DNA of 64,000 nt from Candidatus Omnitrophota bacterium (GTDB lineage: Bacteria; Omnitrophota; Gorgyraeia; Tantalellales; Tantalellaceae), in the NCBI GenBank assembly GCA_015231405.1, contig JADGBR010000001.1, positions 91,964-155,963 on the forward strand, read 5' to 3'. Position 1 is the stretch's first letter. Every line of letters begins with the position of its first letter. The notes beneath the pieces were generated by a model. The model was not told the DNA's origin and made no database searches. It worked only from the letters and a program-made list of their open reading frames with translations. A program made the position numbers and the translations under genes. Positions 38,125 to 61,604 of the stretch are shown one piece after another.

Positions 38125-38250
38125 AACAGAATACAGAATGGAGAATCCAGGATCCAGAATTTGGGATATTTTTAGGAGAGAGTGACCCTGATATAATCCC
38201 GAAAATTATTTTGGATTTTAGCTTCTGGCTTCAGTATTCCAGATTTAAGT
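38125..38250. repeat. NCCAGAA-family heptamers x6 (aacagaa tacagaa tggagaa tccagga tccagaa tttggga) and opposite-orientation TTCTGNN-phased heptamers x6 at 38209-38250
   Basis: Between tRNA-Pro and hom. Right array: ttttgga ttttagc ttctggc ttcagta ttccaga tttaagt. Confidence 0.7.
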
Positions 38251-38279
38251 ACATATATCTCTGTTCAAGGAGTGAGAAA

Positions 38280-39581
38280 ATGCGTTCAGTGAACATAGGG
38301 CTTATAGGCGCCGGTACCATAGGCGGCGGGGTCATAGACCTCATTGACCGTAACGGCAAGCTAATTTTCGACAGGACAGGAATTAAGCTCTTCTTGAAAA
38401 AGGTATGCGATAAAGATACGAAGAGGCTCGCTACTTTCAAGTCATTAAAAAAGTCCCAGTTTACCTCAGATCACAGGGAGATCCTTAACGATAAGGACAT
38501 AGATATCGTTATCGAGCTTATCGGAGGGATCAACCCGGCCAAGGAGATGGTCCTTAAAGCGCTCGGCGCGGGGAAACACGTTGTTACCGCCAATAAAGCC
38601 CTTCTCTCGGATTCATGGGACGAGATCTTCGATACGGCCCTTAAAAACAAGGTATTTGTGAATTTTGAGGCCAGCGTCGGCGGTGCCATTCCGATAATCC
38701 GTTGCCTAAAAGAGAGCTTCGTGACGAATAACCTGGAACTTGTTTACGGCATCCTCAACGGAACGACTAATTTCATACTGACTATGATGGACGAATGCGG
38801 ATATTCGTTCGACGAGGCCCTCAAGATCGCCCAGTCCAAGGGGATAGCCGAAAAGAACCCCGCGCTGGATATTAGCGGCGGAGATTCCGCGCAGAAACTC
38901 GCCATAATCCTTATACTCGGGTTCGGGGTCAAGGTATCGCCTAAAGATATCTTTACCGAAGGTATAGAGAACATAACTCCGCTGGACATTCAGTACGCGA
39001 AAAACTGGGGATATGTGATCAAGCTGTTGGCCATAGCTAAAAGGAAAGCGAAGGAGCTGCAGCTTAGGGTCCATCCTGCGCTTATCCCGGGGCATCATCT
39101 TCTTTCGGGGGTCAAGGGTGAGGATAACGCGGTATTCGTGAGGGGCGATTTTATAGGCGATTCGCTTCTTTACGGCAAAGGCGCCGGAAGCTGGCCGACG
39201 GCAAGTTCCGTTGTCAGCGACGTCGTAGACATAGCCAAACACGTCGTCTCCCATGGGGAAAGATCCCCCGCGACACACATATTGAGAACCCGGCGGGAAA
39301 GTTTCACTTTTCATGAGCACGATTCCTTCGATATCCCATACTATCTCAGGTTTTCCGTCATAGACAAACCGGGAGTTCTTGCGAAAATATCGACGATACT
39401 CGCGAGGAACAATATCAGCATAGAGAGGATGTACCAGGAGGTCAGGAAAGAGGGCCAATCCGTGCCGCTGGTAATGCTCACGCATAACGCCGTTGAAGGC
39501 AATATGAAAAAAGCCATCAGCGAGATCGATAAAATTGATGTCGTGACCGATAAGACAGTGGTCATACGGATAGAGGAGTGA
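38280..39581 (+). CDS. hom: homoserine dehydrogenase
   Basis: MRSVNIGLIGAGTIGGGV NAD-binding N-terminus, catalytic domain, C-terminal ACT domain. RBS AAGGAGTGAG. Confidence 0.9.
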   Translation: MRSVNIGLIGAGTIGGGVIDLIDRNGKLIFDRTGIKLFLKKVCDKDTKRLATFKSLKKSQFTSDHREILNDKDIDIVIELIGGINPAKEMVLKALGAGKHVVTANKALLSDSWDEIFDTALKNKVFVNFEASVGGAIPIIRCLKESFVTNNLELVYGILNGTTNFILTMMDECGYSFDEALKIAQSKGIAEKNPALDISGGDSAQKLAIILILGFGVKVSPKDIFTEGIENITPLDIQYAKNWGYVIKLLAIAKRKAKELQLRVHPALIPGHHLLSGVKGEDNAVFVRGDFIGDSLLYGKGAGSWPTASSVVSDVVDIAKHVVSHGERSPATHILRTRRESFTFHEHDSFDIPYYLRFSVIDKPGVLAKISTILARNNISIERMYQEVRKEGQSVPLVMLTHNAVEGNMKKAISEIDKIDVVTDKTVVIRIEE

Positions 39582-39603
39582 TCGAGAGGATAGAGAGAAG
39601 GGA

Positions 39604-39686
39604 TCCAGAAGCCTGAATATAGGATCCAGAACACGTAATAATTGAAAGGGCATGAACCGATCACTCCTGGATTCTGGCTTCTGAAT
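39604..39686. repeat. TCCAGAA heptamers at 39604 and 39625 (21 nt apart) plus inverted ttctggc ttctgaa at 39673-39686
   Basis: Between hom and thrC. Same unit family as the 38.1-kb, 47.6-kb and 61.6-kb loci. Confidence 0.65.
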
Positions 39687-39718
39687 TTTAACTGGGCTAT
39701 AGGGTCAGAGGGAAATAT

Positions 39719-59634: not shown

Positions 59635-59671
59635 TGTGTTCCTGGTCGATAAAGGACATACGGAGGTGAAT

Positions 59672-60415
59672 ATGAAAGGACTTATATTAGCCGCTGGATA
59701 CGGGACAAGGCTTTACCCTCTGACCCTGAACCTGCCTAAACCGTTATTGGAAGTCGGCGGTAAGACTATCATGGAAAGACATTTGACCAAGCTTGAAGCG
59801 GTTGGAACCTGCGACGGGGTTTACATCGTCACTAATTCCAAGTTCGCTCACGTCATCTCTTCATGGTCGGAAAAACATAAATTCCGGTTCCCTGTCGAAA
59901 TCGTCGACGATGGAACTATCACGAACGAAGACAGGCTCGGGGCGATAGGCGACATTAGGCTCGTTCTGGATAAGAAAGCCCCTTCATCGGACGTACTCAT
60001 AATGGCAGGGGACAACCTTTTCGAGTTCCCGCTTTCGGGCTTTGTGTCTTTTGCAGGGAAAAAAGGATGCCTTACGGTAGCTCTTTACGACGTCAAGGAA
60101 AGGGAGCTCGCTAAAAAATACGGTATAGTTTCACTGGGCGTTGGAGAGCAGGTCACAGATTTCCAGGAAAAACCTAAGGAACCGGGGTCAACTCTCGCGT
60201 CGACAGGTATTTACTATCTCCCGGAAGCCAAACTTGGCTTTTTAGGGAAATACTTGAGTACCGGGAACTCCAAGGACGCGCCCGGTAATTTTGTGAAATG
60301 GATGTCGGAGAACGATAAGGTTTACGGTTACGTTTTCAGGGAAGGGTGGTATGATATCGGCGATATAGATTCCCTTCATAAAGCCGATCGTGAATACAGG
60401 GAGAAGGGAATATAG
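59672..60415 (+). CDS. sugar-phosphate nucleotidyltransferase (NTP_transferase family)
   Basis: MKGLILAAGYGTRLYPLT...KPLL signature. 247 aa. RBS GGAGGTGA. Confidence 0.8.
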   Translation: MKGLILAAGYGTRLYPLTLNLPKPLLEVGGKTIMERHLTKLEAVGTCDGVYIVTNSKFAHVISSWSEKHKFRFPVEIVDDGTITNEDRLGAIGDIRLVLDKKAPSSDVLIMAGDNLFEFPLSGFVSFAGKKGCLTVALYDVKERELAKKYGIVSLGVGEQVTDFQEKPKEPGSTLASTGIYYLPEAKLGFLGKYLSTGNSKDAPGNFVKWMSENDKVYGYVFREGWYDIGDIDSLHKADREYREKGI

Positions 60416-60437
60416 AAAATAAGAAAAGGAGAGTTTA

Positions 60438-61580
60438 ATGAAAGAGAAGTATTTGTTCACATCAGAAAGTGTCACTGAAGGTCATCCCGATAAAGTATGC
60501 GACCAGATATCCGATTCGATACTGGACGCCATAATCAAGAACGACCCGAGCTGCAGGGTGGCCTGCGAAACGCTCGTTACGACCGGACTGGCCGTCGTCG
60601 CCGGGGAAATAACGACTTCCTGCTATGTTGACATACCCAAGATAGTAAGGAACACTATTAAGGAAATAGGGTATACCGACGCGAAGTACGGGTTCGATTA
60701 CCTGACATGCGGCGTCCTTACTTCCATACAGGAGCAGTCTCCGGATATAGCCATGGGAGTCGATGTCGGCGGGGCCGGAGACCAGGGTATGATGTTCGGG
60801 TACGCTACCAGCGAGACCAAGGAGCTTATGCCGATGCCGATAATACTGGCGCATGGTCTGACAAAGAGGTTATCAAGGGTCAGGAAAGAGAACATCCTTA
60901 AATATCTCAGGCCCGACGGCAAGAGCCAGGTCACGGTCGAATATGTTAACGGCAAGCCTCTAAGGGTCGAAGCCGTGATAGTCAGCGCCCATCATGACAA
61001 AAAAGTCGATATGACCACCATGGCCGGGGATATCAGGAAATATGTCATAAATGAGGTGATACCCGCTGAATTTCTGGACAAGAACACCAAGATATTCATT
61101 AATCCAACCGGCCGCTTCGAGGTCGGAGGGCCTCAGGGCGATTCCGGAGTTACAGGCAGGAAGATCATCGTAGACACATACGGCGGCGTGGGGAGCCACG
61201 GCGGCGGAGCGTTCAGCGGCAAAGACCCGTCGAAAGTTGACAGGTCAGCTTCCTATATGGCCAGGTACGTGGCGAAGAACATAGTAGCTTCAGGTATTGC
61301 CGAAAAATGCGAGATACAGATAGCTTATGCCATCGGCATTGCGGAACCGGTCAGCGTTATGGTCAACACCTTCGGCACGGGTAAAATATCCGAGGATAAG
61401 ATAGGTAAGGCCATAAGGGAGGTTTTCAACCTTACTCCCGCGGGCATAATCGAGCACCTCAAGCTCAGAAGGCCTATATTTAAAAAGACCGCCGCTTATG
61501 GCCACTTCGGAAGGATAGAGGAAGGTTTCACATGGGAAGAGACAGGTAAAGCCGTGGAGTTCAAGAAAAAAGCAAAGTAA
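60438..61580 (+). CDS. metK: S-adenosylmethionine synthase
   Basis: [36 protein letters not shown]. Confidence 0.95.
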
Positions 61581-61583
61581 AAT

Positions 61584-61604
61584 AACCAGAATGGAGAATG
61601 ATAT
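61584..61604. repeat. aaccaga atggaga atgatat, a short copy of the NCCAGAA/TGGAGAA unit
   Basis: The 13-mer CAGAATGGAGAAT is identical to 38128-38140. Between metK and ahcY. Confidence 0.45.

Follow-up and report, generated by a model that had tools for sequence, protein, structure and literature searches.

Short intergenic repeats built from degenerate 7-nt units recur throughout a 64-kb stretch of a Candidatus Omnitrophota metagenome-assembled genome (MAG; contig JADGBR010000001.1), and two of them, on either side of the homoserine dehydrogenase gene hom, are paralogous copies of a single element gained since the split from a very close relative. We call this whole 64-kb stretch the window; all array counts and copy numbers refer to it. 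The units around hom, variants of NCCAGAA, had been noticed in a first-pass annotation, which placed them in arrays at four loci and proposed either a mobile or templated origin or a shared regulator of the flanking Thr/Met/SAM-cycle genes (SAM, S-adenosylmethionine). On balance, we consider it probable that the CCAGAA units are one family within a genome-wide class of degenerate 7-nt intergenic arrays and imperfect hairpins, which grew by slippage and were sometimes copied; that they are not sites for a Thr/Met/SAM regulator; and that any effect they have is generic. The observations that carry this conclusion are that the arrays exist, that period 7 is over-represented among them, that they are intergenic and fall into shared families, and that the two copies beside hom are paralogous and recently gained.

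Two paralogous elements flank hom

Arrays of CCAGAA-like units are present at three of the four loci first proposed, at positions slightly different from those originally given: between tRNA-Pro and hom (element H), between hom and thrC (element I) and between valS and rluB (element J) (Table 1). They were recovered both by self-identity at a lag of 7 nt and by Tandem Repeats Finder (TRF). In five segments of H, I and J, lag-7 self-identity is 0.50-0.64, whereas other lags give about 0.2-0.35 (shuffling p<0.002). The arrays are degenerate, with few exact NCCAGAA heptamers.

The array beside tRNA-Pro is indeed followed by inverted copies downstream, and the units between hom and thrC do occur in both orientations. 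The earlier description of hom as bracketed by inverted copies holds for both flanks; in fact, however, these are two direct copies of one internally inverted hairpin element. The left arms of H and I are alike over 29 nt (76%; direct repeat D1, 38131-38159 on the H side), the right ones over 16 nt (88%; direct repeat D3, 38223-38238 on the H side). The two matches have the same order and orientation and lie 1.45 kb apart, and the loops between them are unrelated. The element of which H and I are paralogous copies measures about 110-130 nt. A match to database entry P0001, together with the sequence, places the start of hom at ATG 38280, not at TTG 38211, so that the right arm of H lies in the spacer.

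The right arm of I has competing pairing partners. Positions 39665-39687 pair with the left arm, and 39658-39668 form a perfect 11-nt reverse complement of the 3' end of hom, including its stop codon (39574-39584; inverted repeat I6). This second pairing crosses the arm-arm stem and wins the minimum-energy fold of a longer transcript. The reverse-complemented hom end looks like a trace of inverted duplication of local sequence.

Element J is simpler. It carries two TCCAGAA units 14 nt apart in a single orientation, and its fold offers no partner arm. The last units contribute AAGGA (47610-47614), 8 nt before the rluB ATG, which is likely to be the rluB ribosome-binding site. A second short match between spacers also involves this element: an identical 15-mer, ATAGAAAATAAGAAA, lies at 47567-47581 and at 60412-60426, spanning or directly following the stop codons of valS and of a nucleoside triphosphate (NTP)-transferase gene.

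The fourth proposed locus, between metK and ahcY, holds no array. It consists merely of CCAGAAT GGAGAAT directly 5' of the ahcY start, and positions 61570-61606 show no period-7 signal (lag-7 identity 0.33, p=0.6). The identical 13-mer that had been reported to join this locus to the tRNA-Pro spacer, CAGAATGGAGAAT, does exist, although it lies at 38134 and 61587 rather than at 38128 and 61588. Its GGAG is likely to be the ahcY ribosome-binding site, and we conclude that the match reflects coincidence combined with ribosome-binding-site constraint.

Word counts separate what is unusual about the units from what is not. Across the window CCAGAAT occurs at chance level (9 found, 9.5 expected), but intergenic DNA, which makes up 7% of the window, holds 5 of the 9 copies (binomial p=1.6e-4). 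Allowing at most one mismatch, GGATCCAGAA is found 10 times against 6.4 expected, which is not significant. Repeated 13-mers are common (234 distinct ones in the window), and only a handful, CAGAATGGAGAAT included, have both copies in spacers. The 11-mer AGGATCCAGAA, by comparison, is common to the three spacers of H, I and J; only two k-mers, this word and its reverse complement, occur in at least three spacers, against a shuffle mean of 0.02.

By RNA and DNA folding, the spacers that hold CCAGAA units fold no better than shuffled sequence (z = -1.2, -0.2, -1.6 and -0.04), and thermodynamic stability thus gives no support for selection on the CCAGAA hairpins. A scan of 37800-39800 and 47300-47800 revealed no terminator-like sites and no U-tracts, as an intrinsic terminator would have. 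In the Rfam search of the window only three tRNAs reach gathering scores, with no riboswitch, T-box or leader, and the CCAGAA units contain no G3 tracts from which a G-quadruplex could be built. Nor did a promoter scan find a convincing promoter at the CCAGAA loci. The loop of H contains an extended -10-like sequence, TGATATAAT, which is a possible promoter element for hom; the two-hexamer scan did not call it, as it has no -35 match. Promoters resembling TTGACA-N17-TATAAT are found in several other spacers, for example around 2700, 33030, 36920 and 55340, and sigma-70-type promoters seem to be in use in this genome.

The window holds a class of period-7 arrays

The CCAGAA elements belong to a larger set. 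When self-match was scored across 21 compared positions, a threshold of at least 71% gave 17 arrays with period 7 and 0-3 with each of the control periods 5, 6 and 8-11; at 76% or more, the figures were 11 and 0, and TRF agrees. The arrays sit in spacers between co-directional genes; among spacers of more than 50 nt, they fill about one in two. Their usual architecture is an array, then 30-60 nt, then the inverted copy of that array, and the heptamers differ by locus. Eleven loci fold as long hairpins, some of them very stable (z = -5 to -9). In the remaining long spacers there are promoter-like sequences and GC-rich hairpins.

At least three sequence families can be recognized, each in two or three spacers and each above shuffle expectation: GTCCATG (at 13.5 and 15.7 kb), GTCAGTTGCCGGTT (20.2 and 49.3 kb) and AGGATCCAGAA (38.1, 39.6 and 47.6 kb). 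By Pfam assignment of the neighboring genes, arrays lie within the his (hisB-hisH, hisF-hisI), trp (trpE-trpG, trpC-trpF) and thr clusters, and further arrays adjoin etfB, pgm, tRNA genes, rluB and uvrB. At 10 of the 11 hairpin loci the sense-strand RNA folds better than the antisense strand, with 35 G-U pairs as against 19. This asymmetry is suggestive, but it is confounded by strand-biased mutation.

Two arrays have entered coding sequence or its edge. The most stable hairpin in the window (26448-26512) reads GACGTAA GACGTAA GACGTAG GACGTGG GACGTCC TACGTCT TACGTC and gives rpe a C-terminus unlike that of its relatives; the 3' end of rpe may have seeded the array. It superficially resembles tandem MetJ boxes (AGACGT), but its period is 7 nt. 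The other is a G-rich period-7 array (GGGCAGG GGACAAG GGGCAAG GGTCAGG GAAAGGG, 51377-51423) inside the 3' tail of the uvrB open reading frame (ORF). The uvrB ORF has 693 aa here versus 657-659 aa in relatives, and the reading frame seems to have taken in the array beyond the UVR domain. This is the sole G-rich array, separate from the CCAGAA family, and a candidate G-quadruplex former like the repeats of Xanthomonas and Nostoc.

Table 1. CCAGAA elements, their flanking genes and other period-7 arrays in the window
Feature	Position	Strand	Basis and remarks
tRNA-Pro(GGG)	38031..38108	+	ARAGORN and Rfam RF00005; 100% identical in L003; upstream boundary of element H
Element H left arm, ACAGAAT ACAGAAT GGAGAAT CCAGGAT CCAGAAT	38119..38169	+	TRF period 7, 5 copies (38126-38160); period-7 scan; lag-7 identity 0.64, p<0.0005
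Element H right arm, inverted array ATTTTGG ATTTTAG CTTCTGG CTTCAGT ATTCCAG, with TTCTGGC	38205..38250	+	Lag-7 identity 0.59; pairs with left arm in RNA fold
TGATATAAT, extended -10-like, in H loop, 83 nt upstream of hom ATG	38189..38197	+	Read from sequence
hom, homoserine dehydrogenase	38280..39581	+	100% match to database entry P0001, 433 aa; ribosome-binding site AAGGAG
Element I left arm, degenerate array holding GGATCCAGAA twice, 21 nt apart	39585..39647	+	TRF period 21-22; lag-7 identity 0.50, p=0.0015; direct repeat D1
Element I right arm, inverted: GGATTCTGGCTTCTGAAT / CGATCACTCCTGGATTCTGGCTTCTGAATTTT / ...CCTGGATTCTGGCTTCTGAAT	39658..39694	+	Inverted repeats I2 and I6; direct repeat D3; competing folds
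thrC, PALP enzyme, threonine synthase by synteny	39719..40783	+	Pfam PF00291; conserved hom-thrC synteny; downstream boundary of element I
Element J, valS-rluB, one-armed A-rich array ...AAGCATC CAGAATT AAGGATC CAGAATA TGG	47568..47630	+	TRF period 14 (47590-47622); lag-7 identity 0.57; flanks by Pfam
CCAGAATGGAGAAT, metK-ahcY, not an array	61586..61599	+	13-nt match to 38134-38146; overlaps ahcY ribosome-binding site; flanks by Pfam
GGTGATG array and inverted CATCACC, acyl-CoA dehydrogenase-etfB	431..505	+	TRF, period-7 scan, fold; other family
GACTATG/GACCATG array and inverted GTCCATG, hisB-hisH	13511..13590	+	TRF, period-7 scan; RNA fold z = -6.4
(GTCCATG)x3, hisF-hisI	15704..15744	+	TRF, period-7 scan; family as at 13511
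ATAGCGC/AGAGCGC array and inverted CGCTATG, trpE-trpG	17647..17764	+	TRF, period-7 scan; fold z = -5.3
GTTGTCA/GTTGCCG array and inverted AACGGAC, trpC-trpF	20216..20341	+	TRF, period-7 scan, fold; family as at 49271
Self-complementary GACGTAA/GACGTAG array over rpe stop codon	26448..26512	+	TRF, period-7 scan; fold z = -9.3
GTTGTTA array and inverted CTAACAG, gpsA-tRNA-Pro	37925..38007	+	TRF, period-7 scan
GTTGTCC/GTTGCCG array and inverted AACAGGC, nadC-uvrB	49271..49389	+	TRF, period-7 scan, fold; spacer absent in L009, L011, L012
GAGAATAGAGAACGG ... CCGTTCTCTTCTCTC hairpin, tRNA-Lys-tRNA-Gly, possible member	55480..55575	+	Sequence, fold, shared k-mers

The elements are lineage-specific and recently gained

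The gene order gpsA-tRNAPro-hom-thrC-apgM-ask-cimA-valS-rluB-nadC-uvrB is kept in relatives of this genome, whose loci we refer to by L-numbers. The most telling comparison is with L003, in which Hom is 90% and tRNA-Pro 100% identical. CCAGAA is absent from both of its hom flanks: the tRNA-Pro-hom spacer is 49 nt long with a small AT hairpin, compared with 171 nt in the window, and the hom-thrC spacer is 12 nt long, compared with 137 nt. The absence of H and I from L003 implies that they are recent paralogous gains, made after the split from this very close relative. Against L003, replacement of the whole spacer is the sole change seen at these spacers. Upstream of the same tRNA, L003 has GTGCACG arrays with inverted copies (600-830, between gpsA and tRNA-Pro) where the window has GTTGTTA and CTAACAG; the array sequence at this orthologous site has been wholly replaced beside an identical tRNA-Pro.

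The arrays are a feature of the lineage: L004 (Hom 67%) has 7 with period 7 in 20 kb. Among them are (TTTTCGA)2 before hom and a hairpin of TTTCGAG.../CGAACCC... (TTTCGNG) in the hom-thrC spacer (z = -2.95). The CGAACCC family turns up again upstream of valS, and the valS-rluB spacer holds an AGACAAA array. A further family has members in both genomes at non-orthologous sites: GCGCAGAGCGCA and CTCTATGCGCT, one on each arm, occur at 17647-17764 of the window (trpE-trpG) and at 6895-7041 of L004, between plsY and a hypothetical gene. Either the family has moved or a common sequence constraint is at work.

Period-7 arrays are rare or absent in L009-L011 (Hom 60-63%) and in L001 and L002 (52-53%), the more distant Omnitrophota having one at most. 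The hom-thrC spacers of L001, L010 and L011 are 0-24 nt long; L009 is the exception, with 76 nt and a weak heptamer array. Plain hairpins follow tRNA-Pro in L003, L009 and L010, and L006 (Hom 46%) has (AAATCCC)4 between hom and thrC. Across the 12 related loci searched, GGATCCAGAA was never found, and the motif is absent from the same junctions in L003, L004, L009, L010 and L011, so that the conservation of an operator is not seen. Other small repeats do occur in these spacers. L009 carries a dispersed palindrome, GGGTTTGATAAATCAAACCC, between tRNA-Pro and hom and again between rluB and nadC (1129-1158 and 11262-11311), and in L011 ATTTATCCCGTCCG lies inside a direct repeat of roughly 70-85 nt (2823-2886 and 19139-19337), at valS-rluB. 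The same intergenic positions appear to be recurrently colonized by small repeats peculiar to each lineage. The differing spacers of the relatives lead us to conclude that the elements are lineage-specific, are gained and replaced faster than proteins diverge by 10%, and that the same permissive spacers are occupied repeatedly, by differing sequences.

Other observations in the window

The + strand carries all of the roughly 57 genes and the 3 tRNAs, and GC skew stays positive throughout (+0.03 to +0.23). So long a co-oriented stretch is unusual and would fit strong gene-strand bias on one replichore. Upstream of an XRE-type helix-turn-helix gene (34374-34742), the 904 nt at 33470-34373 contain no convincing ORF. 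None reaches 100 aa, and there are short ones of up to 86 aa, which the Pfam search did not cover. The surrounding 2-kb bin has a GC content of 0.42 against about 0.49, and the region holds a 17-nt perfect inverted repeat, GGCGTGAAGGAGATGGG, at 34105 with its complement near 34242-34258. The region may represent a non-coding RNA, a decayed gene or what is left of foreign DNA. An apparent spacer of 298 nt (57549-57846), between a CofD-family gene and the gene for enzyme I of the phosphotransferase system, encodes a short HPr-like protein (MIIKKEVIVRNGSGLHARPAAMF...); this ORF falls below our 100-aa cut-off, and the segment is thus not intergenic.

Methods

The arrays were detected with the period-7 scan and with TRF as described above, and the significance of lag-7 self-identity was obtained by shuffling. 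Shared k-mers and fold z-scores were judged against dinucleotide shuffles. tRNAs were called with ARAGORN and Rfam RF00005, and gene identities come from Pfam. The comparison set included the relatives L001-L004, L006 and L009-L012. A genome search yielded only relatives of 52-53% Hom identity, which have no arrays, and a metagenome search only relatives of 46-55% identity. A search with NadC gave a best match of 66% and no close relative; this match, L012, is a partial contig that ends short of hom and was left out of the period-7 scan. Its spacers between called genes measure 3-39 nt, that between valS and rluB 18 nt.

Discussion

How might such elements arise? In the scheme that we favor, arrays would first grow by replication slippage in a 7-nt register. 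Inverted duplication or template switching would then make a second arm or keep it complementary; the reverse-complemented hom 3' end in I, and the mirroring of unit variants between the arms of the hairpin at 17.6 kb (labeled D), point to this step. Whole elements would now and then be copied to other spacers, as H, I and J and the cross-genome family suggest. The resulting imperfect hairpin would form in single-stranded DNA or in a polycistronic transcript. Its effect, if any, would most likely be a generic one of intercistronic RNA structure on mRNA processing, on stability or on downstream translation, as proposed for repetitive extragenic palindromic (REP)-type elements. For the CCAGAA copies that effect is probably weak, because their folds are no more stable than shuffled sequence.

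Several points weigh against this scheme. Slippage and template switching are inferred rather than observed, and the CCAGAA loci, with 50-64% lag-7 identity, are far more degenerate than classical simple sequence repeats (SSRs), which means that active slippage may be ancient or rare. The presence of the same family in different spacers, and of GCGCAGAGCGCA/CTCTATGCGCT in two genomes, calls for a copying mechanism or a shared constraint beyond growth in situ. Better folding of the sense strand and the excess of G-U pairs would fit selection on RNA, although strand-biased mutation could account for them too. Finally, the conclusions rest on 64 kb of genome only.

The copying that this scheme has to accommodate is the starting point of an alternative in which it is the primary process. 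The elements would then be selfish, non-autonomous mobile DNA, akin to REP doublets forming hairpins (REPINs) or to miniature transposable elements with inverted repeats (MITEs), copied in trans by an enzyme such as a REP-associated tyrosine transposase (RAYT) encoded elsewhere, and period 7 would be secondary. Much about H and I suits this idea: they are extragenic, their inverted doublet with a spacer forms a hairpin as in the definition of a REPIN (PMC3116915), and they are whole-element paralogues recently gained. Families have 2-3 copies in 64 kb, one of them occurs in two genomes at non-orthologous sites, and relatives have dispersed palindromes of their own, such as that of L009, in the very spacers concerned. 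The details, however, do not follow. A Y1 or other transposase domain is found in none of the roughly 57 proteins of the 64-kb window. At the element boundaries set against L003 there is no target-site duplication, as a MITE should have; the only duplication near I is GGATAGAG, to the left of the element (TRF). Loops and spacers are unrelated among family members, the arms are only 76-88% alike, and the heptamers are many and diverse, where REPs would show one or a few conserved sequences. We regard this explanation as unlikely, and the first-pass suggestion of a mobile or templated origin as holding in a weak sense: H and I match in both arms and are both missing from L003, but neither a transposase among the window's proteins nor a target-site duplication accompanies them.

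A related idea, to which we likewise give a low probability, is that this lineage harbors an undescribed self-propagating intergenic element, whose arms of 7-nt units diversify into families and which spreads between neighboring spacers, through hairpin or template-switch copying or through an enzyme, and turns over faster than proteins diverge by 10%. If true, it would tie the long-unexplained excess of heptamers in bacteria to a concrete, REPIN-like population dynamic.

Rather less likely again, in our judgment, is that the elements are selected intercistronic RNA hairpins, comparable to REPs or bacterial interspersed mosaic elements (BIMEs), which shield upstream cistrons against 3' exonucleases, steer processing or adjust translation of the next gene, their sequence drifting while pairing is kept. 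Their location is what one would look for: inside operon-like his, trp and thr clusters, beginning 0-20 nt past the upstream stop codon, with canonical GC-rich hairpins and promoter-like sequences in the other long spacers. Several of the hairpins are very stable, the sense strand is favored as described above, L004 has a hairpin of other sequence between hom and thrC, and three relatives have plain hairpins after tRNA-Pro. Yet the CCAGAA hairpins themselves gain no stability over shuffled sequence (z = -1.2, -0.2 and -0.04), they lack U-tracts, and J is one-armed. Close and distant relatives manage with hom-thrC spacers of 7-24 nt and no hairpin, and strand-biased C-to-T mutation can yield the G-U excess.

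The proposal that a common regulator, such as a DNA-binding repressor or a CsrA-type protein that binds GGA, acts on NCCAGAA to co-control hom, thrC and metK-ahcY is very improbable. It could draw on the significant intergenic concentration of CCAGAAT, on the occurrence of RGGATCCAGAA upstream of hom, thrC and rluB, and on the fact that the units contain GGA and overlap the ribosome-binding sites of rluB and ahcY. However, one of the three true loci precedes rluB, a pseudouridine synthase gene outside Thr/Met/SAM metabolism, and metK-ahcY has no array. The spacers of the same cluster from thrC through apgM and ask to cimA are 3-15 nt long and lack units, so that neither ask nor cimA is provided with them. 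Arrays of other heptamers stand at equivalent positions in the his and trp operons and beside unrelated genes, no riboswitch or leader was found by Rfam, and the motif is missing from all 12 related loci, the orthologous hom flanks of L003 (Hom 90%) among them. A regulator site is therefore unsupported: it fails on conservation, on functional coherence and on specificity. What the comparisons do support is recent copying from spacer to spacer. CsrA-type GGA sites and MetJ-like AGACGT boxes were considered as candidates and dropped for want of testable support.

Chance likeness of purine-rich, low-complexity spacers and ribosome-binding regions accords with the global counts of CCAGAAT, GGATCCAGAA and repeated 13-mers and is the best account of metK-ahcY, but for H, I and J we reject it, and give it hardly any credence overall, given the lag-7 signal in five segments (p<0.002), an 11-mer in three spacers against 0.02 expected, the match of H and I in both arms and the intergenic enrichment (p=1.6e-4).

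For annotation, the analysis removes a tempting but unsupported regulon call for hom, thrC and metK-ahcY, and corrects the start of hom. The origin and function of heptamer repeats have been unsettled since 1990-2007, and Omnitrophota, an uncultured phylum of small genomes, proves to have lineages whose longer spacers are, in about half of all cases, taken up by arrays, mostly as hairpins. Paralogy between neighboring copies, together with presence and absence against a close relative, provides a compact natural system in which genome and read data alone could address an origin by slippage plus template switching and REPIN-like mobilization.

Relation to known repeats

Four described kinds of repeat come closest to these elements. 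In many bacteria, no class of long SSRs (LSSRs) is more over-represented than heptamer repeats, which are ascribed to polymerase slippage (Mrazek et al., 2007, cited by PMC4679880 and PMC4692102). The heptameric LSSRs and cyanobacterial short tandemly repeated repetitive sequences (STRRs) of Mazel et al. (1990) and Mrazek et al. (2007), in the accounts given by the same two papers, resemble the present arrays in their 7-nt tandem units, their intergenic bias, the excess of period 7 and the presence of several heptamers per genome. They are also described there as varying strongly in length and sequence among close relatives and as having no established function. As those accounts portray them, our arrays differ in being short (3-6 units), far more degenerate and mostly organized as inverted pairs that form hairpins, and in their Omnitrophota host. 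The window's arrays have at least three tandem 7-nt units, with period-7 excess and intergenic bias, but their units are not near-perfect (75-89% matches in TRF, 50-64% lag-7 identity), and they are therefore heptamer SSRs in a loose sense only.

A structural parallel is offered by the intergenic heptamer arrays of Xanthomonas (GGGAATC) and Nostoc (GGGGA(C/T)T) (PMC4692102). About three quarters of the Xanthomonas arrays are convergent inverted pairs, 70-75 in number and capable of forming stem-loops (Rehm et al., 2015, PMC4692102); inverted pairs of this kind are found here in H and I and among the 11 hairpin loci. The Xanthomonas and Nostoc arrays are transcribed and lie between the same genes in related species, with extensive variation in length and sequence (PMC4692102). 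Theirs, however, is one G-rich family capable of forming G-quadruplexes, and 83% positionally conserved between two species, whereas here there are many families, CCAGAA lacks G-tracts, and the elements are missing even from a relative with 90% identical Hom.

The TAACTGA repeats of marine Beggiatoaceae, cyanobacteria and Bacteroidetes (MacGregor, 2015, PMC4679880) likewise form short arrays directly 5' of start codons, over the ribosome-binding region, and their downstream genes show no functional pattern; the likeness is closest for the one-armed valS-rluB array. There, one highly conserved heptamer is repeated in direct orientation only (169 direct sets, one indirect), in contrast to the degenerate units, several families and mostly inverted pairs described here.

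With REP, BIME and REPIN elements (Bertels and Rainey, 2011, PMC3116915) the arrays share an extragenic inverted doublet with a spacer, a predicted hairpin in single-stranded DNA or mRNA, dispersed families, lineage specificity and a frequent location in operons. The arms of REPs are conserved 20-25-nt imperfect palindromes, with tens to hundreds of copies linked to a RAYT (PMC3116915); the arms here are 7-nt tandems. With 2-3 diverged copies per family in 64 kb, no RAYT or other transposase among the window's proteins and no target-site duplication, the elements cannot be filed as REPINs or MITEs.

Our literature searches turned up no description of heptamer, tandem or intergenic repeats in Omnitrophota.

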